Source of the DNA: Escherichia coli
Lineage (GTDB): Bacteria; Pseudomonadota; Gammaproteobacteria; Enterobacterales; Enterobacteriaceae
Length of the DNA stretch: 64,000 nucleotides
Reading direction: 5' to 3' (one strand)
Assembly (NCBI RefSeq): GCF_044324785.1
Contig: NZ_CP172127.1
Part shown: in pieces, positions 1,360 to 32,653 of the stretch
Layout of the letters: every line of letters starts with the position of its first letter
Numbering within the stretch: the first letter of the stretch is position 1
Notes under the pieces: model-generated
The model's input: only the letters and a program-made list of their open reading frames with translations
What the model was told of the DNA's origin: nothing
Database searches by the model: none
Position numbers and translations under genes: made by a program

Positions 1360-1794
1360 CAGTGTTTCTCCTTTCGCCCGCCAGAGTAAAAAGCAACCGT
1401 TTACGTTAATGAAACTGTCTAAACACATGCTCGTGGAGTGCCAGTTTTTGCGAGGAAGGGGAGTTAGAGACAGGAATTGCGGAGGCAATCACATAATCGT
1501 GGTTAAACCACGAAAATGAGAAGAGAACCTGACAATGGAATTATCTGTAATTTTCTCATATTGATATTTCATTAATCATTCTGGCATGTCGCACTCTCGC
1601 TTTTAATCGTTTTTATCTGGATAGCGCTCTTTTGGTCGGCAATGTTGAAATAATGAAAGCGGCACAGATTGAGGGGCAATAATTTGAACTCAGTCGCAAA
1701 ATTATAATTAAAACGGTCATGCTACCTAATATATGCCCGTTTATTGCATCGCGAAATTTGAGAAGACATAACTCATTAAATGAAAGGGATGCAA

Positions 1795-8375: not shown

Positions 8376-8539
8376 CCCTTCACTCCTTTTAAAGTAAATT
8401 TGATCATCTGAATCAGTAAAATAAATTCCCACGAATTTGGGGCGCAGGACGCCTTGAGAACGGCTTATCTCATTTTCGCAGTCACTATTTAGTCGTCGTT
8501 CAAACAGAGAAACAGGCCGCCGAAGCGGCCATTTATTAT

Positions 8540-13567: not shown

Positions 13568-16500
13568 TTACACCTCCACGCGGCCCAGCAGATAATGATG
13601 ATGCTGGTGGACATGGCTAATGATGCGGCACATATCGTTCAGCTCCGGTGGTACGTTGTTGAACTGACCTTCGCTGTCGATGTTTAACACCCAGCTTTGG
13701 TTATTCAGACGTACTCGTACCCGGCAATCTTCCACAAGGAAGCCTGGGTTGCTGCTGTTATCAAAGTCTTGCGACAGGCTGAAGACGGTGATTTTGTCTT
13801 TGTACGGTTTACCGTTCCACGGACAGAACTGAGCGCAGTTGCCGCATTCGTTACAGTAAGCGTCGAGGTGCAGCGTCTGGAAACGGTTCTGGAAGCCAGG
13901 GACCGCAATGGAGACGTTGGCGCGGTTCGGGCAGACATCCACACACTTGCTGCAAACGTAGTTACATTCAAGGCAGCGAGCAGCTTCCTGCGCGACAAAC
14001 GCATCACGATCGTCACTGTTCACCAGCGTGATAGAGATATCGCCTTTACGTTGATAGATTTCCGCCGGATTGACGTTGTTCCAGTATTTATCGTTCTGGT
14101 GGGAACGGATATTTTCCCGACTAAGGATGGCATCGGTCGCCCGACGCGCGGTTCCGACAGCAGCGACAATGGAGGATGGTCCGCGCTGTACGTCGCCGAT
14201 CATAAAGACGTCAGTCAGACGAGTTTCGCCATTATGGTCGACGTCTGGCCAGCCGTTTTTGTCCAGCGGCACGCCCATCGCATTCAGGGCTTCAGTATCC
14301 TGCTGTTCACCAATGGCGGTGATCAGGCTGTCTACATGCAGTGTTACTGTTTCGTTGGTTTCAACCGGACGGCGACGACCTTTCTCATCAGGTTCGCCAA
14401 GCGACATAACGCGCAAGGTTAAGGTGCCATCAGCATCGAAACGTTCCGGATTATTCAGGAAACGGAACTCCACGCCGTCGTGCAACGCTTCTTCATACTC
14501 TTCGCGCCATGCTGGCATCTCTTGCAGTGAACGACGGTAAACGACCGTTGCTTTTTCTACGCCTGGAACGCGTAACGCCGCACGAGCGCAGTCCATTGCC
14601 GTGTTACCCGCCCCGACAACGACCACATGTTTGCCCAGCTTGAGCGCTGTGCCCTTGTTGTATTCACGCAGGAAGGGGAGTGATTTCCAGACATTTTGGT
14701 TGTCGCCCGCCAGTTTCACACCGCTATTTTTATCAGTGCCGGTGGCAATCAGAACATAGTGGAAGCCCTGATTTTTTAACTGTTCAACGGTCAAATCGGG
14801 TGAGCAGCCATACTCAAATTTCACGCCGTGAGCGGCAACAAAATCGATATCGTGCTGAATTAACTCTGCAGGAATACGGAACTGAGGAATGATATTTTTC
14901 ACCACGCCGCCCGCATTGGCTTCGCGTTCAAACAGCGTAACCGGATGGCCCGCTCTGGCAAGGAAGTAACCTGCTGCCAGACCCGCCGGACCTGCACCAA
15001 TCACGGCAACCGGATGGCGTGAACCAGAACCGGCTGGTTTGTGCCAGCGTTGCTTATATTCATCCCAACCTTTTTCCAGCGCGACTTTTTTCAGTTCGCG
15101 GATATTCAGCGCACTGTCGTAATCCAGGCGGGTACAGTTGTATTGGCACTGGTGATCGCAAATATGACCGGTAATGGCGGGCAGGGCGTTGCGTTGGTAG
15201 ATGAGTTCCAGTGCGTCGGCATAGCGGTGTTCGCCAAGCAGACGGATGTATTCCGGAATATCCTGTTTAATGGCGCAAGCAGTAACGCACGGTGCAACGT
15301 AGCAGTCGGTCAGCGGCAGGTCTTCTGCCACTTCAATACGCTCTTCTGGCTTCCAGTGTTTCTGAGTGTATTCCATGGTTAACGCGTCTGCTGCCAGTTT
15401 GTTCAGTCGTTCGACGTCAACATGGTCAAGCCCCCAGGCGTCGGAGCCTTCCAGCTCGCGCATGCAGGCACTTAAGCGCAGATAGCCGCCAGGTTTCAGC
15501 AGGTCGGTTGCCATCGTGATAGGGCGAATACCAGTATCAAAAATATCGCGGATAGTCAGCTGACTGGCACCACCGGAATAAGAAATGGGCAGTTTGCCGT
15601 CAAAGGCGCGAGAGAGAACTGCTGCAACATTGATGGAGAGCGGGAACAGCGCACGGCCTGACATATACATCTCTTCACCAGGCAGTGCGCCTTTATTGTT
15701 GATGGTGCCGAGAGTGTTAGTCAGTTTTACGCCAAAGCCGAGTGATTTTTCTTTTGCCAGTGCCATCAGACGTTCCAGCATTTCCAGTGCTTGCGTCAGC
15801 TTGAGGTCGTGATCAAATGACTCTTCTTTTAAGCCTATGTAACCGAAACCGCAGACATCGAGGATCTCACGAACACGCGCGTACCCCAGTAAGGTCGGGT
15901 TGAGTTTCACAAAGGTATTGAGCCCTTTTTCTTCCAGCATGTAGCGGCAAATGGCTTCGATTTCATGCGGAGGACAGCCGTGCATGGTGGAGAGGGTGAC
16001 GCCCTGCACCATGCTGGTGGGGATGCGAGCGGGTAAGGCTTGCAAGCTTTCGCGTTTTTCCTGCAATCCGTGGCGGGCTAAAAATGCGTCATCCTGGAGT
16101 AATTTATTCAGCGTATCGCGATATTGAGCGAATTTCGGATGGTCAGATGCGTCCATCATATTGTCGATGAACTGTTGCATCGGCGGTTGCTTAATACCTT
16201 CGAGGTTGTAACCGACGCTCATATTAAAGATGAACGATTTACCGGAATCAGAAGGCTGGAACATCGCTTCGAGAAGGTGCAGGGCAAACCAGGCTTTGAG
16301 GTATTCATCCCAGGCTTTAAGCAGGGTAAATTCGGTGGACCATTCGGTGTTAAAGCACTCGTCTTCGGCATCAATACAGGGCTTTTCCAGCTCCAGGCGG
16401 TCAAGAATTTGGACGGTTTTTAGTTCGATGAAGCGTCCGCCAGTCAGCCAGGAAGTGACAATATTTTGCGCGAGCTGCGTGTGCGGGCCAGCGGCAGGGC

Positions 16501-16666
16501 CGACGGGAGTGGCACAGGTTTCACCGAAGACGCTAACAGTTTTACCTTTTACGGGTGAGTAAAACTGTTGCTCGGGAATACCAAAGATTGAGCGTTGTTG
16601 TTGGTATTCATCAAATATGCGCGTCAAAAGTTCCTCAAACGGAATGGGACGCATAATATCCCCCAT
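13568..16666 (-). CDS. ygfK: Large Fe-S flavoprotein oxidoreductase (putative selenate reductase-type subunit)
   Basis: 1032 aa; GAGPAGL and GAGNTAMD dinucleotide-binding motifs, C-terminal 4Fe-4S Cys clusters; first gene of the minus-strand ygfK..ghxQ operon. Confidence 0.85.
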   Translation of the reverse strand: MGDIMRPIPFEELLTRIFDEYQQQRSIFGIPEQQFYSPVKGKTVSVFGETCATPVGPAAGPHTQLAQNIVTSWLTGGRFIELKTVQILDRLELEKPCIDAEDECFNTEWSTEFTLLKAWDEYLKAWFALHLLEAMFQPSDSGKSFIFNMSVGYNLEGIKQPPMQQFIDNMMDASDHPKFAQYRDTLNKLLQDDAFLARHGLQEKRESLQALPARIPTSMVQGVTLSTMHGCPPHEIEAICRYMLEEKGLNTFVKLNPTLLGYARVREILDVCGFGYIGLKEESFDHDLKLTQALEMLERLMALAKEKSLGFGVKLTNTLGTINNKGALPGEEMYMSGRALFPLSINVAAVLSRAFDGKLPISYSGGASQLTIRDIFDTGIRPITMATDLLKPGGYLRLSACMRELEGSDAWGLDHVDVERLNKLAADALTMEYTQKHWKPEERIEVAEDLPLTDCYVAPCVTACAIKQDIPEYIRLLGEHRYADALELIYQRNALPAITGHICDHQCQYNCTRLDYDSALNIRELKKVALEKGWDEYKQRWHKPAGSGSRHPVAVIGAGPAGLAAGYFLARAGHPVTLFEREANAGGVVKNIIPQFRIPAELIQHDIDFVAAHGVKFEYGCSPDLTVEQLKNQGFHYVLIATGTDKNSGVKLAGDNQNVWKSLPFLREYNKGTALKLGKHVVVVGAGNTAMDCARAALRVPGVEKATVVYRRSLQEMPAWREEYEEALHDGVEFRFLNNPERFDADGTLTLRVMSLGEPDEKGRRRPVETNETVTLHVDSLITAIGEQQDTEALNAMGVPLDKNGWPDVDHNGETRLTDVFMIGDVQRGPSSIVAAVGTARRATDAILSRENIRSHQNDKYWNNVNPAEIYQRKGDISITLVNSDDRDAFVAQEAARCLECNYVCSKCVDVCPNRANVSIAVPGFQNRFQTLHLDAYCNECGNCAQFCPWNGKPYKDKITVFSLSQDFDNSSNPGFLVEDCRVRVRLNNQSWVLNIDSEGQFNNVPPELNDMCRIISHVHQHHHYLLGRVEV

Positions 16667-16817
16667 AACCCTCTCCTTAGCTTATACAGATATCATTGAG
16701 TGACCGGTGTTGAGAAATCCGGTGGTTTAGGGGGATAGAGCAACAATCGCACCACTCTTGCCAGGTTTGGCGGGAAATATAAAAAAATGTGAGGCGGCTC
16801 GAAACTTAGGAGCTTTT

Positions 16818-16833
16818 TGTGAATGAACTCACA
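16818..16833. promoter_or_regulatory. Candidate CRP binding site upstream of ygfK
   Basis: Perfect match to the CRP consensus half-sites TGTGA-N6-TCACA (tgtgaatgaactcaca), about 150 bp upstream of the ygfK start. Confidence 0.35.
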
Positions 16834-16987
16834 GGTGCCAAATGAGAATTAAAATCACTCCTGAAAATTATTATTGCCAGCCCATTTATCACTTTTTCTC
16901 TTTTCTCAAAATCAGTGATTCCTTATCATTATGATAAAGAGAACTGGAAGGGTTAAATATTTGAACGCAATCGTTTAACTACGTTTT

Positions 16988-17566
16988 CTAAATTTCAGTA
17001 TACCTTTTTTTCGCTGTAATAAAGTCGTCCGGAGTATCAATATCTAAAATTATTTCTGCATTTTCTATTTCGACGGAATAATGTTCTCCCATAAGGAGTG
17101 CCTGACGCATATTGGTGATATTGGGACGCTGGATTGCCTGCATCAGGCATGGCTTTGACACTAAAATCGGATGGCCGGGAATGCCATTATGGAGTGGCAG
17201 TATTGCGCCATCATTTCGTAACGACCAGATTTTCCTAAAAATATCGATGGTGAGGGTAGGCATGTCACCGTGGGTGAGAAAACAATATTCTGTTTGTACC
17301 GCGGGTACTGCGGCCTTTACTGATGTTAGTAAACCCTGTGCATAATCTGGGTTATGGATAATAGTGATATTGCTCTGGTTCGCATAACGCTTGTGCAGTT
17401 CATTACCACGATAGCCGGTGACTAAAATAATTCGGCTACAAAACTGCAACGCATTTTTGATACTTGTATCAAGAATTGTTCCCTGTTGCCAGGGTAACAT
17501 CATTTTCCATTGCCCCATTCTTGATGATAATCCGGCAGCGGTAATTATACAGTCGATGGCTGACAT
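16988..17566 (-). CDS. mocA: Molybdenum cofactor cytidylyltransferase (MobA-like NTP transferase)
   Basis: 192 aa; MobA-like N-terminus (ITAAGLSSRMG); synteny with K-12 mocA (ygfJ). Confidence 0.8.
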   Translation of the reverse strand: MSAIDCIITAAGLSSRMGQWKMMLPWQQGTILDTSIKNALQFCSRIILVTGYRGNELHKRYANQSNITIIHNPDYAQGLLTSVKAAVPAVQTEYCFLTHGDMPTLTIDIFRKIWSLRNDGAILPLHNGIPGHPILVSKPCLMQAIQRPNITNMRQALLMGEHYSVEIENAEIILDIDTPDDFITAKKRYTEI

Positions 17567-17668: not shown

Positions 17669-18439
17669 GTGAAAAGTATAGTTGACCCATCGGCATTATT
17701 CATTGATTTAGGCGCGCAGAAACGTCCCACTGTGATTTCTGTTGTTGGGGCTGGGGGGAAAACCAGCTTGCTTTTTTGGCTGGCAGAACTGATCCAGGCT
17801 AGCGGCAGGCGTGTGTTAATCACTACGACGACACATATGTTTATGCCAACGTCTCACTGGCCCGTGGTTTTCTGTCGTGATCCCGCCATGCTTCCTCATG
17901 CGTCTCTTACATCCCCCATTTCATTTTGTTTTCACAGCTGGAAAGCGAACCAGGGAAAAGTGCAGGGATTTATGCCAGAAGCGATTGATGCACTGGTGCA
18001 ACGACCAGAGTGTGACGTAATTCTCATTGAGGCAGATGGCTCGCGTGGAATGCCGTTAAAAGCGCCTGATGAGCACGAACCTTGCATACCCAAAAGCAGT
18101 TGCTGCGTGATTGCTGTGATGGGAGGACATATTTTGGGCGCGAAAGTGAGCACAGAAAATGTCCATCGCTGGTCGCAGTTTGCTGATATTACCGGGTTAA
18201 CACCTGATGCAACCTTGCAACTGAGCGATCTCGTTGCGCTGGTTCGCCACCCTCAGGGCGCATTTAAAAACGTACCGCAAGGTTGTCGGCGAGTCTGGTT
18301 CATTAACCGTTTTTCTCAATGTGAGAATGCGATTGCGCAAAGCGAGCTCCTTCAACCGCTGCAACAACACGACGTAGAGGCAATCTGGCTGGGCGATATA
18401 CAAGAACATCCTGCAATCGCGCGCAGATTTGTGAATTAG
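17669..18439 (+). CDS. yqeC: Putative selenium-dependent hydroxylase accessory protein (P-loop)
   Basis: 256 aa; Walker A-like VVGAGGKTS; synteny. Confidence 0.8.
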   Translation: MKSIVDPSALFIDLGAQKRPTVISVVGAGGKTSLLFWLAELIQASGRRVLITTTTHMFMPTSHWPVVFCRDPAMLPHASLTSPISFCFHSWKANQGKVQGFMPEAIDALVQRPECDVILIEADGSRGMPLKAPDEHEPCIPKSSCCVIAVMGGHILGAKVSTENVHRWSQFADITGLTPDATLQLSDLVALVRHPQGAFKNVPQGCRRVWFINRFSQCENAIAQSELLQPLQQHDVEAIWLGDIQEHPAIARRFVN

Positions 18440-23839: not shown

Positions 23840-25036
23840 TTAAGGTGCTACAGCGTGTTTGCCTTCCCAGACAACTTCGCGGTAGTGCTTCACGTCTGTG
23901 TCGCCTTCAGTGCTGATAACCAGCACTACGGCATCTTTGTTCAGCGCCAGTTTTTCCATCAGGCTTTGACGTTGCGGGTGATAATGAACCGCTGCGAGAA
24001 CGCCCAAACCGACAGCGCCAGATTCACCGGAGATGATGCGTGGATCGTTGCCGTACGGATTACCCAGTACGCGCATACCTAATGCGGCAACGCTGTCCTG
24101 GCAGGAGATGAATTGGGTGGCGCAGTTACGTAGGATTTCCCAGCCCAGCGGGTTAGGTTCGCCACAGGCCAGGCCTGCCATGATGGTGGCCATATCACCG
24201 CCAACGTTGACGATGTCGCCTTTGACGCCAGAGCGATAAATACAGTCAGCTTTGTCAGGTTCAACAATAATGCTGTGCAGATTTTGCGGGCTGTAGACGT
24301 CGACCAGATAACCCAGCACACCACCAGCCATTGCACCGACACCGGCTTGCAGCAGAACGTGCGTCGGGGTTACGCCCATTTCACGCATTTGCTCGACGGC
24401 TTCATCTGCCAGTGTTGCGTAGCCTTGCATGATCCAGGTTGGGATTTTGGTGTAACCTTCCCAGGCGGTATCTTGCACCACTTCCCAGCCGTGCTGCTGC
24501 GCGTGTTGCATGGTCAGGCGAACGGTATCGTCATAGTTCATATCCGTGACGATGCACTCGGCACCGAGGTTCAGAATGGCGTCAACGCGTTCCTGAGCAG
24601 AACCTTTCGGCATGTAAATCACCGCATTCTGTCCGAGTTGCTGTGCTGCCCACGCCACACCGCGCCCGTGGTTGCCGTCGGTGGTGGTCGCGAAAGTCAT
24701 TTTTTCGCCGATGGCATTTTTCAGGTGCTCAAATGACAGCGTTTCGATATCAAGATGATATTTTTCGCACAATAATTGAGCGATGGCGTATGCACCGCCG
24801 AGCATTTTGAAGGCGTTCAGACCGAATCGTTTTGATTCGTCTTTGACGAGAATTTTCTTCACACCAAAAAGGTTTGCGAGATCGTCCAGCGCACAAAGCG
24901 GTGTTGGGCGATAACCAGCAATTTTCTGGTGGAACTGGCGCGCCAGTTTGGCCTGGCTTTGCGAAAAGAGCGGTGATGTTTCGCCGTTGAAAAATTTGTT
25001 ATCGGCGATATCAATCTTCAATGAGAAAACGGACAT
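23840..25036 (-). CDS. ygeX: PLP-dependent 2,3-diaminopropionate ammonia-lyase
   Basis: 398 aa; PLP-lysine region (NAFKMLGG); synteny with K-12 ygeX (dpaL). Confidence 0.85.
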   Translation of the reverse strand: MSVFSLKIDIADNKFFNGETSPLFSQSQAKLARQFHQKIAGYRPTPLCALDDLANLFGVKKILVKDESKRFGLNAFKMLGGAYAIAQLLCEKYHLDIETLSFEHLKNAIGEKMTFATTTDGNHGRGVAWAAQQLGQNAVIYMPKGSAQERVDAILNLGAECIVTDMNYDDTVRLTMQHAQQHGWEVVQDTAWEGYTKIPTWIMQGYATLADEAVEQMREMGVTPTHVLLQAGVGAMAGGVLGYLVDVYSPQNLHSIIVEPDKADCIYRSGVKGDIVNVGGDMATIMAGLACGEPNPLGWEILRNCATQFISCQDSVAALGMRVLGNPYGNDPRIISGESGAVGLGVLAAVHYHPQRQSLMEKLALNKDAVVLVISTEGDTDVKHYREVVWEGKHAVAP

Positions 25037-26284: not shown

Positions 26285-26376
26285 AAAGTCCCGGTAGTGG
26301 AATGACAGGCAAAGAGGTTTATTTCACTGTGACTTGCCAAAAGTGATTGGTCTTTTCACAGCTATACCTGGGACTA

Positions 26377-26391
26377 ACAATAACTATGCCA
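26377..26391 (-). promoter_or_regulatory. Candidate sigma54 (-24/-12) promoter for ygeW
   Basis: Minus-strand TGGCAT-N5-TTGT (consensus TGGCAC-N5-TTGC; one mismatch in the -12 element) about 95 bp upstream of ygeW, next to the divergently encoded sigma54 activator ygeV. Confidence 0.3.
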
Positions 26392-26760
26392 GAATTATCC
26401 AAGCGGCTGCAAAAGACTAATTTGACGGGTAATGTGTGGGGTTGATCACAAATTGATGCCAGCTTCTGGTTGTTTGTAAAATACGAAAACGTTTGGCTTT
26501 TTTTATCGCGTTATTTATTTGCTGCTAAGTATCAGAAATAAGATAAAGGGGCAGGTTATCCCTCGTCAGTTTGATAAACTCACCGCCGTAATTCTCATAT
26601 TGATATAGAAATGTGATATCTCTTCCATAATTTCATTAGAAAGTGATAAAAATCTTATGTTTTTATCAAAGCCAATTTCGTCTGAGTTAATATCATCATG
26701 ATCTGTGAACCATCAACGTCTTCAATGATCGACTTTTAAGTAAGTCTGGAAGGTAAAGCT

Positions 26761-29943: not shown

Positions 29944-32202
29944 TCAAATCAATCCTGCCAGATGGAACTCTTCATATAACCGTTTTGGCGTCAGCGGCAG
30001 TGTATTGATTGCAACACCGGTAGCCATCTTCACCGCGTTACGAATAGCAGCGGCAACAGGAATTATGGGTGGCTCACCCAGTGACTTATGTCCGTATGCG
30101 GATTGCGGCTCATTGATTTCGACGAACGCGCTTTCCAGTTGTGGCAGATCCGGCATGGTCGGCATTTTGTAATCCAGCAGATTGGGGTTACGGACCACGC
30201 CGCTTTTCGCATCAATGATCATCTCTTCAAATAGCGCCCAGCCAATGCCCATTCCCATTCCGCCGTGTACCTGACCTTCTGCCAGTAGCGGATTAAGAAT
30301 ATGGCCCGAATCATGAACGTTGAGGATGCGGTTGATGGTGACTTTGCACAGCGCAATATCGATCGTCAGATCAACAAAGGTACAGCCAAATGCCGGTGGG
30401 TTAGTGGTGGTTTTGATGGAGCTTTCAGCAGAGAGCTGCCCGCCGCGTTCAGGGTGGTAGAAAGCGTCCATCGCCAAATCTTTTAACGACATTAACGGCT
30501 CTTCCGGTCGTTCAATCAGCACGATATGGCCTTTTATCAGGGTCAGATTCATCGCTGACTGATGTAGCATGACTGCGGCGTGAGCGATGATTTTCTCTTT
30601 TAATAACAGTGCCGCACTGCGCAGCGCAGGCGCGGCAACATAGCTCTGGCGTGAGGCAAATGCGCCGGGATCGAACGGCGTAACGTCGGTATCTTGTGTT
30701 GAAATAACGCGAACGTCGCTGACCGGAACCCCCACGGTTTCTGCCACCATTTGCGAGAAGACAGTGTCGGCACCCTGACCGATTTCTGTCGCGCCGCTTT
30801 GCACGTTGATGGTTCCATCCTGATTCATCAACAGGCGCGCGCCTGCTATTTCTACGCCGACAGGCCAGGTGTTAGAGGTGTAGCTAAAACAGGCGACGCC
30901 AACGCCGCGGCGTAAATTGCCTTGCTGGTTCTGGCACTCTGCACGGCGTTTTTCCCATTCAAAGATTTTCCGGCCTTTTTCAAGACACTCCGGCAACCCT
31001 GCGCTGTAAATACGTTTGCCTGTGAGCGGATTAGCATCTCCTTCGCGGGCGGCGTTGCGTAAACGAATTTCAACAGGATCAATACCTAACGCTGTCGCGG
31101 CGTCATCAAGCATAGACTCAACGGCAAATACGACTTGTGGCGCGCCATAACCACGCATCGCACCAGCCGAGGGGAGGTTGGTATAGCAGGTCTTTGAACT
31201 GTAAGCGTAGGCACAACGAGGATAAAGGTAAGCGACTTTATTCCCCCCCGCAGAAGCGATGGAGTGCCCGTGAGATGCATAAGCGCCGGTGTTAGACAGA
31301 ACATCCAGACTATAACCTTTCAATGTTCCGTCGCGGTTCACGCCCATTTGCCCGTCAATAGTGAAAGCGTGGCGGGTTCGGGTTGCGAGGAAACATTCTT
31401 CACGACTAAGGGAAACTTTCACCGGAATGCCGCCAAGCTTGCTGGTCAGGAATGCCGCCATTGGCTCTTCCAGAACATCCTGTTTATTACCAAAACCGCC
31501 ACCGACAAACGGTTTGATAACTCGTACGCATGACCAGGGAATATCCAGCGCCTGACCAACGACGCGGCGAACAATGTGCGGGATCTGGGTGCTGGAAACG
31601 ATGGTAATTCGAGAGTCATCCTCCATCCATGCCAGCGATGTCACGCTTTCCATGTGACAATGTTGAATGACCGGCGTCTGATAGTGCCCCTGTACCTGGT
31701 AGTCGGCGGCATCGATTGTTTGTTGGACATTACCCGTCGACATCGTGCTTTGTTTTAGTAAATTGCCGCCGTTATGGATTGGTGCAGCGTCATCTGCCAG
31801 CGCCGCTTCTGGCGTGGTGATAACGGGTAATTCTTGCCACTCAATGCTGACCAATTGCGCCGCTTTTTCTGCCGTGAGTTCATCACGGGCCACGACGATG
31901 GCAACGGCGTCACCATGATGACGAACATGGCGAGTTAGCAGTGCGCGATCGGCGGTATCGCGCTTGTTTTCGTCAAGTGTCCAGGCATGCCCAGCTGTAG
32001 CGAATGGGATATCAGGTACATCTTCCCAGGTAAAAATCGCCAGTACGCCTGGTAAACTTCTGGCTTGTTCATCATTAATACTTACGGCATAACCATGTGC
32101 GATAGGGCTACGTACATATTTCGCGTAACACATGCCCGCCATAACATAATCGTCAGTATATCGTGCCCGCCCGGTGACCTTAGCAATGGCATCGACGCGC
32201 AT
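29944..32202 (-). CDS. xdhA: Xanthine dehydrogenase molybdenum-binding subunit
   Basis: ORF 29944..32241 trimmed to MRVDAIAKVTG... (752 aa); an in-frame ATG at 32241 with a stronger SD (GAGGGGA) is an alternative start. Confidence 0.85.
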   Translation of the reverse strand: MRVDAIAKVTGRARYTDDYVMAGMCYAKYVRSPIAHGYAVSINDEQARSLPGVLAIFTWEDVPDIPFATAGHAWTLDENKRDTADRALLTRHVRHHGDAVAIVVARDELTAEKAAQLVSIEWQELPVITTPEAALADDAAPIHNGGNLLKQSTMSTGNVQQTIDAADYQVQGHYQTPVIQHCHMESVTSLAWMEDDSRITIVSSTQIPHIVRRVVGQALDIPWSCVRVIKPFVGGGFGNKQDVLEEPMAAFLTSKLGGIPVKVSLSREECFLATRTRHAFTIDGQMGVNRDGTLKGYSLDVLSNTGAYASHGHSIASAGGNKVAYLYPRCAYAYSSKTCYTNLPSAGAMRGYGAPQVVFAVESMLDDAATALGIDPVEIRLRNAAREGDANPLTGKRIYSAGLPECLEKGRKIFEWEKRRAECQNQQGNLRRGVGVACFSYTSNTWPVGVEIAGARLLMNQDGTINVQSGATEIGQGADTVFSQMVAETVGVPVSDVRVISTQDTDVTPFDPGAFASRQSYVAAPALRSAALLLKEKIIAHAAVMLHQSAMNLTLIKGHIVLIERPEEPLMSLKDLAMDAFYHPERGGQLSAESSIKTTTNPPAFGCTFVDLTIDIALCKVTINRILNVHDSGHILNPLLAEGQVHGGMGMGIGWALFEEMIIDAKSGVVRNPNLLDYKMPTMPDLPQLESAFVEINEPQSAYGHKSLGEPPIIPVAAAIRNAVKMATGVAINTLPLTPKRLYEEFHLAGLI

Positions 32203-32653
32203 GCAAGATTCACCCGTAGCGGTTGCTTCCCGCGCTTCCATAGAAATCCCCTCGATTTGAACATTTGGTTCTTATGGCAAAGATTTAGTCTAAGCAGGCA
32301 AGATTTACGCCAGAAACGACGATAAGCGTTAGGGGAGGAAGGAAGTGTGATGACGTTAAAAAAACACAGATATGATACGAAACAGGACCCTGAATAGGGA
32401 CAGTGATACGTATCAATATGAGTGGCGATAAAATCAATGTGATAAATCAGGATTATTACGCATCAGGATGGAAATAGGGTAAAAGTCAGGAACTTCGATA
32501 CCTCTGCAGCGAATATTTTGCTGATGATACTTCCCTTTGCCAAATGAAATTAACCTCTTTCTCTATTACCGCGTTTTTCCAGAAGCAAGAGATTGGGTAT
32601 CCAGAGGCTGGCTGCTATGATATGGCGTCTTGTTTTTTAAGCGAGGAAAGATT

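Follow-up and report, generated by a model that had tools for sequence, protein, structure and literature searches.

Conserved tandem CRP boxes between a candidate YgeV enhancer and the sigma-54 promoter of Escherichia coli ygfK, and their possible role in co-activation

Introduction

The perfect CRP palindrome that precedes ygfK in Escherichia coli is a genuine, high-affinity cAMP-CRP site, functional by the evidence of its conservation and already known as a CRP target, and the gene behind it is driven by a sigma-54 promoter, with CRP sitting at -97.5 in the interval that leads from the enhancer to that promoter. We give a probability of about 0.55 to the reading that cAMP-CRP serves at ygfK as a positive architectural co-activator of YgeV- and sigma-54-dependent transcription. 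The distal site itself adds nothing as a discovery, having been on the CRP SELEX target list since 2011; what the present analysis adds is its sigma-54 context, the phase-locked tandem arrangement to which it belongs, and the conservation of that arrangement.

When E. coli degrades uric acid anaerobically, the committing steps fall to the products of ygfK-ssnA-ygfM-xdhD. The urate pathway is being engineered into probiotics against hyperuricaemia and gout, where glucose repression is a practical obstacle (PMC12507026), and for such engineering it is useful that the ygfK promoter itself has two conserved CRP boxes, so that the ygeV-ygeW spacer, which has already been replaced, is not the only one concerned. 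The same promoter offers a natural test case for a mechanistic question, namely whether a sigma-54 promoter that depends on an enhancer can be stimulated by CRP as a DNA-bending protein.

The Distal CRP Box

The window, by which we mean the whole stretch of 64,000 nucleotides that was analysed, is E. coli chromosome in reverse orientation (Table 1). It carries TGTGAATGAACTCACA at 16818-16833, a 16-bp core TGTGA-N6-TCACA with two-fold symmetry, which reads TGTGAGTTCATTCACA on the strand of ygfK (minus) and is the only exact occurrence of that pattern in the 64 kb. The box lies inside the 321-bp spacer between mocA (16988-17566, minus strand) and ygfK, 152-167 bp upstream of the ygfK ATG (16666, minus), and its centre is 159.5 bp from it; the first-pass annotation had reported an exact core about 150 bp upstream of ygfK, and both the core and its distance were borne out. 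In 100 dinucleotide-preserving shuffles of the window exact cores appeared at a mean of 0.10, with at least one match in 9 of the 100, and the window-wide count of one is, taken alone, only weak evidence. Scaled by length, the same mean predicts ~5e-4 exact cores in the mocA-ygfK spacer, and it is this low expectation, together with half-sites conserved at a fixed position and the published binding of CRP, that marks the distal box as more than chance.

That binding was reported by Shimada et al. (2011; PMC3105977), who found ygfK among new CRP targets in a Genomic SELEX with purified cAMP-CRP. The ygfJ(mocA)-ygfK spacer made up 9 of the 160 clones and was the third most abundant, more clones having been obtained only for yecJ/yecR (59) and yibI/mtlA (38), and fewer for malE/malK (PMC3105977). 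Table S3 of that work gives exactly TGTGAGTTCATTCACA under 'ygfK-ssnA', plus a second box, TGTGAGGCGGCTCGAA (window 16788-16803), and also holds TGTGATCAACCCCACA for ygeV<>ygeW and TGCGACTGAGTTCAAA for ygfTS<>ygfU (PMC3105977). The in-vitro binding check that had been proposed for the site has in effect, then, already been published, and CRP binding at the ygfK spacer is near certain.

Table 1. Features of the ygfK promoter region and of related sites, in window coordinates; positions with a sign are relative to the respective sigma-54 start
Feature	Position	Strand	Sequence	Remarks
ygfK coding sequence	13568-16666	minus		1032 aa; flavin-dependent 2,8-dioxopurine reductase (PMC12507026)
Predicted ygfK transcription start	16728	minus		12 nt downstream of the C in the -12 GC; 62-nt leader
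Sigma-54 -24/-12 element, ygfK	16739-16755	minus	GTGGTGCGATTGTTGCT	ChIP-seq site (PMC4591121)
Proximal CRP-like box, ygfK	16788-16803	none	TTCGAGCCGCCTCACA (ygfK strand)	8/10
Distal CRP box, ygfK	16818-16833	none	TGTGAGTTCATTCACA (ygfK strand)	10/10 core positions
Conserved block 3	16842-16858	minus	GTGATTTTAATTCTCAT	-130 to -114 (~-122); TGAT and TCTCA half-sites in convergent order
Conserved block 2	16902-16911	minus	TTTTGAGAAA	~-183 to -174 (~-178); contains a TGAGA half-site
Candidate YgeV enhancer, block 1	16924-16936	none	TTATCATAATGATAA	palindrome TATCA-N3-TGATA; centre ~-202
TMTCA-N3-TGAKA, exact copies	1554-1566, 16924-16936, 18314-18326, 24748-24760, 26593-26605
TMTCA-N3-TGAKA, copies with 1 mismatch	32411-32423, 32432-32444, 26691-26703
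CRP-like box, ygfT	1683-1698	none	TGCGACTGAGTTCAAA	8/10; -68.5 from the ygfT sigma-54 promoter (1733-1748, plus); in Table S3 of PMC3105977
CRP-like box, yqeB	18011-18026		TGTGACGTAATTCTCA	9/10; -78.5 from the intragenic promoter (18071-18086, plus)
CRP box, ygeV-ygeW spacer	26435-26450	none		9/10; -77.5 from the ygeW sigma-54 promoter (26376-26391, minus); in Table S3 of PMC3105977
Weak CRP-like box, xdhA	32346-32361	none		8/10; -67.5 from the xdhA sigma-54 promoter (32297-32312, minus); sequence match only, not on the SELEX list
Terminator-like hairpin	8515-8530	minus	GGCCGCTTCGGCGGCC	GC-rich, with a T-rich (not uniform) tail; directly after xdhD

The Sigma-54 Promoter of ygfK

Upstream of ygfK a -24 GG and a -12 GC stand at the correct spacing (TGGTGCGATTGTTGCT at 16739-16754), and the sigma-54 ChIP-seq of Bonocora et al. 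(2015; PMC4591121) placed a peak, OS31, on GTGGTGCGATTGTTGCT, 62 bp upstream of the gene, with further sites at xdhA, ygeW and ygfT. The start of transcription was positioned by the convention for sigma-54 promoters, and the value of 62 that the ChIP-seq study tabulates as the distance is consistent with it (PMC4591121); relative to this predicted start, the centre of the distal box falls at -97.5.

A consensus scan of the ygfK strand gave no sigma-70-like promoter downstream of the distal box, and a sigma-70 -35/-10 pair that would place CRP near -41.5, -61.5, -71.5, -82.5 or -92.5 does not occur at ygfK. The sole minus-strand candidate of the scan lies upstream of the box. This match, TTAACC-17-CATAAT at 16928-16956, runs into TTATCATAATGATAA, the palindrome of the candidate enhancer, and is probably a by-product of the palindrome's sequence, since other genera have different bases there. 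The nearest -10-like hexamer, TATATT, occurs 44.5 bp downstream of the distal box centre and would put CRP near -56.5; its -35 region matches at 3 of 6 positions, and only close relatives share the hexamer.

The Proximal Box and Conservation of the Tandem

Between the distal box and the core promoter stands a second, CRP-like box, centred at -67.5 and 30 bp from the distal one, whose left half is conserved but non-consensus. Both boxes sit between the enhancer candidates (-202, -178 and -122) and the core promoter (-26 to -10). At CytR-type promoters tandem CRP sites are ~52 bp apart; that architecture was considered for ygfK and set aside on the spacing of 30 bp, no CytR-like repeat being seen by eye between the boxes.

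Conservation was examined in 80 loci encoding YgfK relatives, and their upstream regions were anchored on the sigma-54 element, which was recognisable and conserved in 74. About 30 Enterobacterales loci have a box that matches at least 9 of 10 positions and is centred exactly at -97.5 or -98.5, among them loci of Escherichia, Citrobacter, Klebsiella indica, Trabulsiella, Kluyvera, Pluralibacter, Buttiauxella, Yokenella, Enterobacter, Serratia and Edwardsiella; in Morganella the distal box is further upstream, at -99.5 to -110.5. Across the 29 Enterobacterales loci whose distal box scores 8/10 or better, the information content is 1.6-2.0 bits in GTGA and TCACA, 0.9 bits at the first T and 0.2-1.2 bits at five of the six positions of the spacer. 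Among 7 Escherichia sequences the half-sites do not vary, the differences within the genus falling in the spacers, and of 5426 complete E. coli genomes 5168 have the 136-bp promoter segment at an identity of 95% or higher.

The proximal box is conserved as TT[AC]GA-N6-TCAC[AG] at -67.5 or -68.5, 30 bp downstream of the distal box. Box positions in the main group vary by at most 1 bp, and where they depart from this they do so in larger steps: in Morganella morganii both boxes are displaced by 11-13 bp, and in Vibrio and Photobacterium the whole module is displaced by +11 bp. The displacements are thus of ~11 bp, about one helical turn, with both boxes and the enhancer moving together, and the conserved and the shifted positions alike keep to one helical phase with respect to the core promoter.

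Aeromonas, Vibrio, Photobacterium and Shewanella also keep TCACG, the right half of the proximal box, and this element is older than the consensus distal CRP box. The right half with its flank (TCACGAAAT) was seen at -67.5 or -78.5 in loci of Aeromonas, Vibrio, Photobacterium, Aliivibrio and Shewanella (L030-L040 and L053-L078; ~-60 to -80), in which the left half is degenerate (TnnGA). The distal box has been lost (7/10 or less), with the proximal box and the sigma-54 promoter kept, in K. oxytoca (L012), Cedecea neteri (L016), Enterobacter genomosp. O (L025) and Raoultella terrigena (L043) and in Pantoea/Erwinia (L064-L067), and lineages of this kind are natural variants that can be used to test the contribution of the distal box. 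In one half of the box TGCGA replaces TGTGA in Morganella (L044, L046 and L047), in the same Pantoea/Erwinia loci and at window 1683-1698. A C at the third position of the half-site is the hallmark of Sxy-dependent 'CRP-S' sites.

A Candidate Enhancer for YgeV

Three conserved blocks upstream of the CRP boxes were defined from an anchored stack of 39 Enterobacterales upstream regions. The pattern to which the first of them belongs, TMTCANNNTGAKA (TMTCA-N3-TGAKA), has 5 exact copies in the window against 0.27 expected, and of the four intergenic regions in the cluster that hold a sigma-54 promoter, three (ygfT/uacT, ygfK and ygeV/ygeW) have exact copies, the upstream region of xdhA having copies with one mismatch. 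In 68 of the 74 loci, from gamma- and beta-proteobacteria, there is an exact copy ahead of the ygfK sigma-54 element, and these loci include ones from Aeromonas, Vibrio, Shewanella and a beta-proteobacterium in which the distal CRP box is lacking. The distances of the motif are quantised, at -181/-182, -191 to -194, -201 to -203 and -214/-215, that is, in steps of ~10-11 bp.

YgeV, which is encoded in the cluster, has PAS, Sigma54_activat and HTH_8 domains, and the TMTCA-N3-TGAKA blocks are presumably its enhancer; the literature search returned no published description of a YgeV binding site. Two other assignments were tried and rejected. A resemblance of TTATCATAATGATAA to a Fur box did not hold up, other genera having TATCAAAGTGATA or TCTCATATTGATA, and the distal palindrome was itself judged unlikely to be the YgeV enhancer, a role that the more widely conserved TMTCA-N3-TGAKA fits better.

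CRP-like Boxes at the Other Sigma-54 Promoters of the Cluster

Boxes resembling that of ygfK stand upstream of the other sigma-54 promoters of the cluster, those of ygeW, ygfT, xdhA and yqeB (Table 1), the last of which is intragenic, inside yqeC, and has been experimentally validated (PMC4591121). The yqeB box TGTGACGTAATTCTCA also resembles the ygfK block GTGATTTTAATTCTCAT with one base fewer, and its assignment is ambiguous. CRP-like boxes with at most 2 mismatches are not enriched across the window (23 against 28.6 expected). Six of the 23 stand ahead of the cluster's five sigma-54 promoters, at distances of 67-98 bp, where the overall box density predicts ~0.07 in the ~180 positions from 65 to 100 bp upstream; the enrichment is positional only.

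The positions at which these boxes stand, -97.5, -77.5/-78.5 and -67.5/-68.5, are 46, 26 and 16 bp further upstream than the CRP position of glnAp2 (-51.5), which amounts to 4.4, 2.5 and 1.5 turns. The CRP boxes of the cluster are therefore roughly on the face opposite the -51.5 position of glnAp2.

Operon Extent, Pathway and Glucose Repression

The genes ygfK-ssnA-ygfM-xdhD have been assigned to reductive uric-acid degradation, whose first steps they encode and in which XdhD-YgfM makes 2,8-dioxopurine and YgfK-SsnA dearomatise and open it (PMC12507026). In the 164-bp gap between xdhD and xanQ lies a terminator-like hairpin, GGCCGCTTCGGCGGCC, at which the ygfK-ssnA-ygfM-xdhD unit probably ends, and its presence speaks against a simple co-transcription of xanQ-guaD-ghxQ with ygfK. 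The list of the YgeV iModulon includes ygfK, ssnA, ygfM and xdhD, stops at xdhD, and omits xanQ, guaD and ghxQ. The first-pass annotation had described a single operon of seven genes from ygfK to ghxQ, which the hairpin and the iModulon list together make doubtful, and had taken its function to be purine salvage, where the genes are in fact those of reductive urate catabolism (PMC12507026). The xdhA gene is annotated as frameshifted in the closest complete genome, that of strain N3 (L001, 4811-7107); in the window (29944-32241) it is an intact ORF of 765 aa, and the window is hence not the exact sequence of that strain.

In wild-type E. coli glucose represses urate degradation and slows the degradation of yanthine, which is the YgfK-SsnA step (PMC12507026). 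The same work uses the term 'native Crp-binding site' for the site in the ygeV-ygeW spacer, and replacing that spacer alone, with the ygfK boxes intact, bypassed the repression by glucose (PMC12507026). Because this replacement sufficed, the glucose effect could run mainly via ygeV/ygeW or via inducer uptake. The literature search found no paper in which crp directly affects the transcription of ygfK in vivo, nor any expression data for the gene in crp or cya strains. As for the catabolite control of the ygfK operon that had been proposed from the palindrome, what stands is that the site is a genuine CRP target and that glucose represses the pathway; what does not is the ordinary CRP-activated promoter that such control would usually imply, its place being taken by a sigma-54 promoter.

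A Model for CRP at ygfK and Its Rivals

The distal and proximal CRP boxes stand in the interval in which IHF sits at many sigma-54 promoters. When glucose is absent, cAMP-CRP would bind and bend the DNA at the ygfK boxes, and the bends would help YgeV on its enhancer to reach, by looping, that face of the closed Esigma54 complex which is free, with the result that urate catabolism would need the YgeV signal and carbon limitation together. The parts of this model that we infer are the position of the start, YgeV as the protein that binds the enhancer, the positive sign of the CRP effect and the mechanism of bending. Bending has precedents, as cAMP-CRP can act on sigma-54 promoters by DNA bending together with alpha-CTD contact (PMC3900584, PMC1865078), and the activator approaches from the face opposite the CRP position that lies on the Esigma54 side (PMC3900584). 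The positive sign is probable because glucose represses urate degradation (PMC12507026), and it is this repression, along with the opposite-face position of the boxes, that makes co-activation the best supported reading.

We extend it only tentatively, at a little under even odds, to the whole YgeV urate regulon, in which ygfK, ygeW, xdhA, ygfT and yqeB would form a natural class of sigma-54 promoters with cAMP-CRP as a positive, phase-locked architectural co-activator in the place of IHF, and with two in-phase CRP bends at ygfK. Such a class, if it is real, contrasts with the published cases that we found, in which CRP only represses, and would explain why glucose represses the degradation of urate by E. 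coli in the gut.

The main rival to co-activation is that CRP binds the ygfK boxes but inhibits, either by contacting the alpha-CTD of promoter-bound Esigma54 or by misdirecting the loop; YgeV would then be prevented from activating, and carbon limitation would damp urate catabolism. That CRP binds in vitro is established (PMC3105977), and the characterised natural interactions of CRP with sigma-54 promoters that we found, at dctA, glnAp2, glnHp2, ast, nif and Pu, are all inhibitory (PMC3900584, PMC1865078); at glnAp2 repression comes from CRP centred at -51.5, on the side of the helix that Esigma54 occupies, and the enhancer is bent away from the face accessible to the activator (PMC1865078). 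Glucose, however, which lowers cAMP, represses rather than stimulates the degradation of urate and yanthine (PMC12507026). Relative to the repressive position at -51.5, moreover, the ygfK boxes are offset in phase by about half a turn of the helix. For a catabolic pathway that yields pyruvate, ammonia and ATP, positive catabolite control is the expectation, and inhibition by CRP is on balance unlikely. It is highly improbable that CRP acts at ygfK by canonical class I or class II activation of a sigma-70 promoter, independently of sigma-54: a perfect core upstream of and co-directional with the gene would suit such a promoter, as would TATATT, but the hexamer puts CRP on the wrong helical face for class I, besides its poor -35 match and conservation, the consensus scan gave nothing sigma-70-like downstream of the box on the ygfK strand, and it is the sigma-54 element, occupied in vivo, that stays at a fixed distance (PMC4591121).

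Another protein, either YgeV or a factor of the CRP/FNR family, might instead be the main user of the palindrome in vivo, the match to CRP then being secondary. The boxes are at typical enhancer distances, their 30-bp tandem resembles the arrays of enhancer-binding proteins, and none of the cluster's sigma-54 promoters is without a CRP-like box; in Photobacterium the same position holds TTGA-N7-TCACA, and the proximal TCACG is conserved beyond the range of the CRP palindrome. Since that right half persists in lineages without a recognisable CRP palindrome, another protein may use the proximal box. As an account of the palindrome itself the proposal is improbable, given that purified CRP alone strongly selects the ygfK spacer (PMC3105977), that TMTCA-N3-TGAKA, present in 68 of 74 loci and in lineages without the distal box, is the better enhancer candidate, and that a variable first T beside an invariant GTGA fits recognition by CRP. 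We give almost no credence to a chance match, bound by CRP in vitro and devoid of a regulatory role: 9% of the shuffled windows do hold an exact core, but the half-sites and their position are conserved across several Enterobacterales families in which the spacer and flanks diverge. Many SELEX targets, it is true, have no effect in vivo.

Comparison with Known Systems

Co-activation at ygfK would place CRP where it is found at glnAp2, Sinorhizobium dctA and Pseudomonas Pu (in E. coli), acting on an enhancer-dependent sigma-54 promoter from between enhancer and core, with an effect that at those promoters depends on DNA bending and helical face (PMC1865078, PMC3900584). There, however, CRP has a weak site or none and must be recruited by Esigma54, and what results is repression, whereas the site of ygfK matches the consensus perfectly, is bound by CRP unaided, belongs to a tandem, lies further upstream and on approximately the opposite face, and belongs to a pathway whose physiology points to activation. 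The arrangement is also like that of the IHF-assisted sigma-54 promoters such as Pu and nifH, in which a bending protein sits under a phase constraint between the enhancer and the -24/-12 element (PMC3900584, PMC2709558), although at ygfK the bending protein would be CRP, which is responsive to a signal. A scan for the IHF consensus, limited to non-Enterobacterales, found no matches in the corresponding interval of the Aeromonas, Vibrio and Shewanella relatives without CRP boxes, and the idea that IHF replaces CRP in these relatives gained no support.

The recognition sequence at ygfK is that of class I sigma-70 promoters such as lac P1 (TGTGA-N6-TCACT, with CRP at -61.5), but unlike lac P1 ygfK has no sigma-70 core at the required distance, and the promoter downstream, being sigma-54, is not one that can be activated by recruitment alone. 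A further counterpart may be prpBCDE (propionate), whose sigma-54 promoter is said to have CRP-dependent expression (Lee, Newman and Keasling, 2005, J Bacteriol), and which would be, like ygfK, a catabolic operon served by sigma-54 and an enhancer-binding protein under positive catabolite control via CRP. Another relative is the set of engineered glnAp2 promoters of Huo et al. (2006, Mol Microbiol 59:168), in which consensus CRP sites reportedly stimulate or inhibit according to helical face, with stimulation from the face opposite Esigma54; what later papers quote of that work (PMC3900584, PMC1865078, PMC2709558) is consistent with this. In those constructs, as at ygfK, a consensus CRP site stands between the enhancer and a sigma-54 core; they were synthetic, and ygfK would be a natural case.
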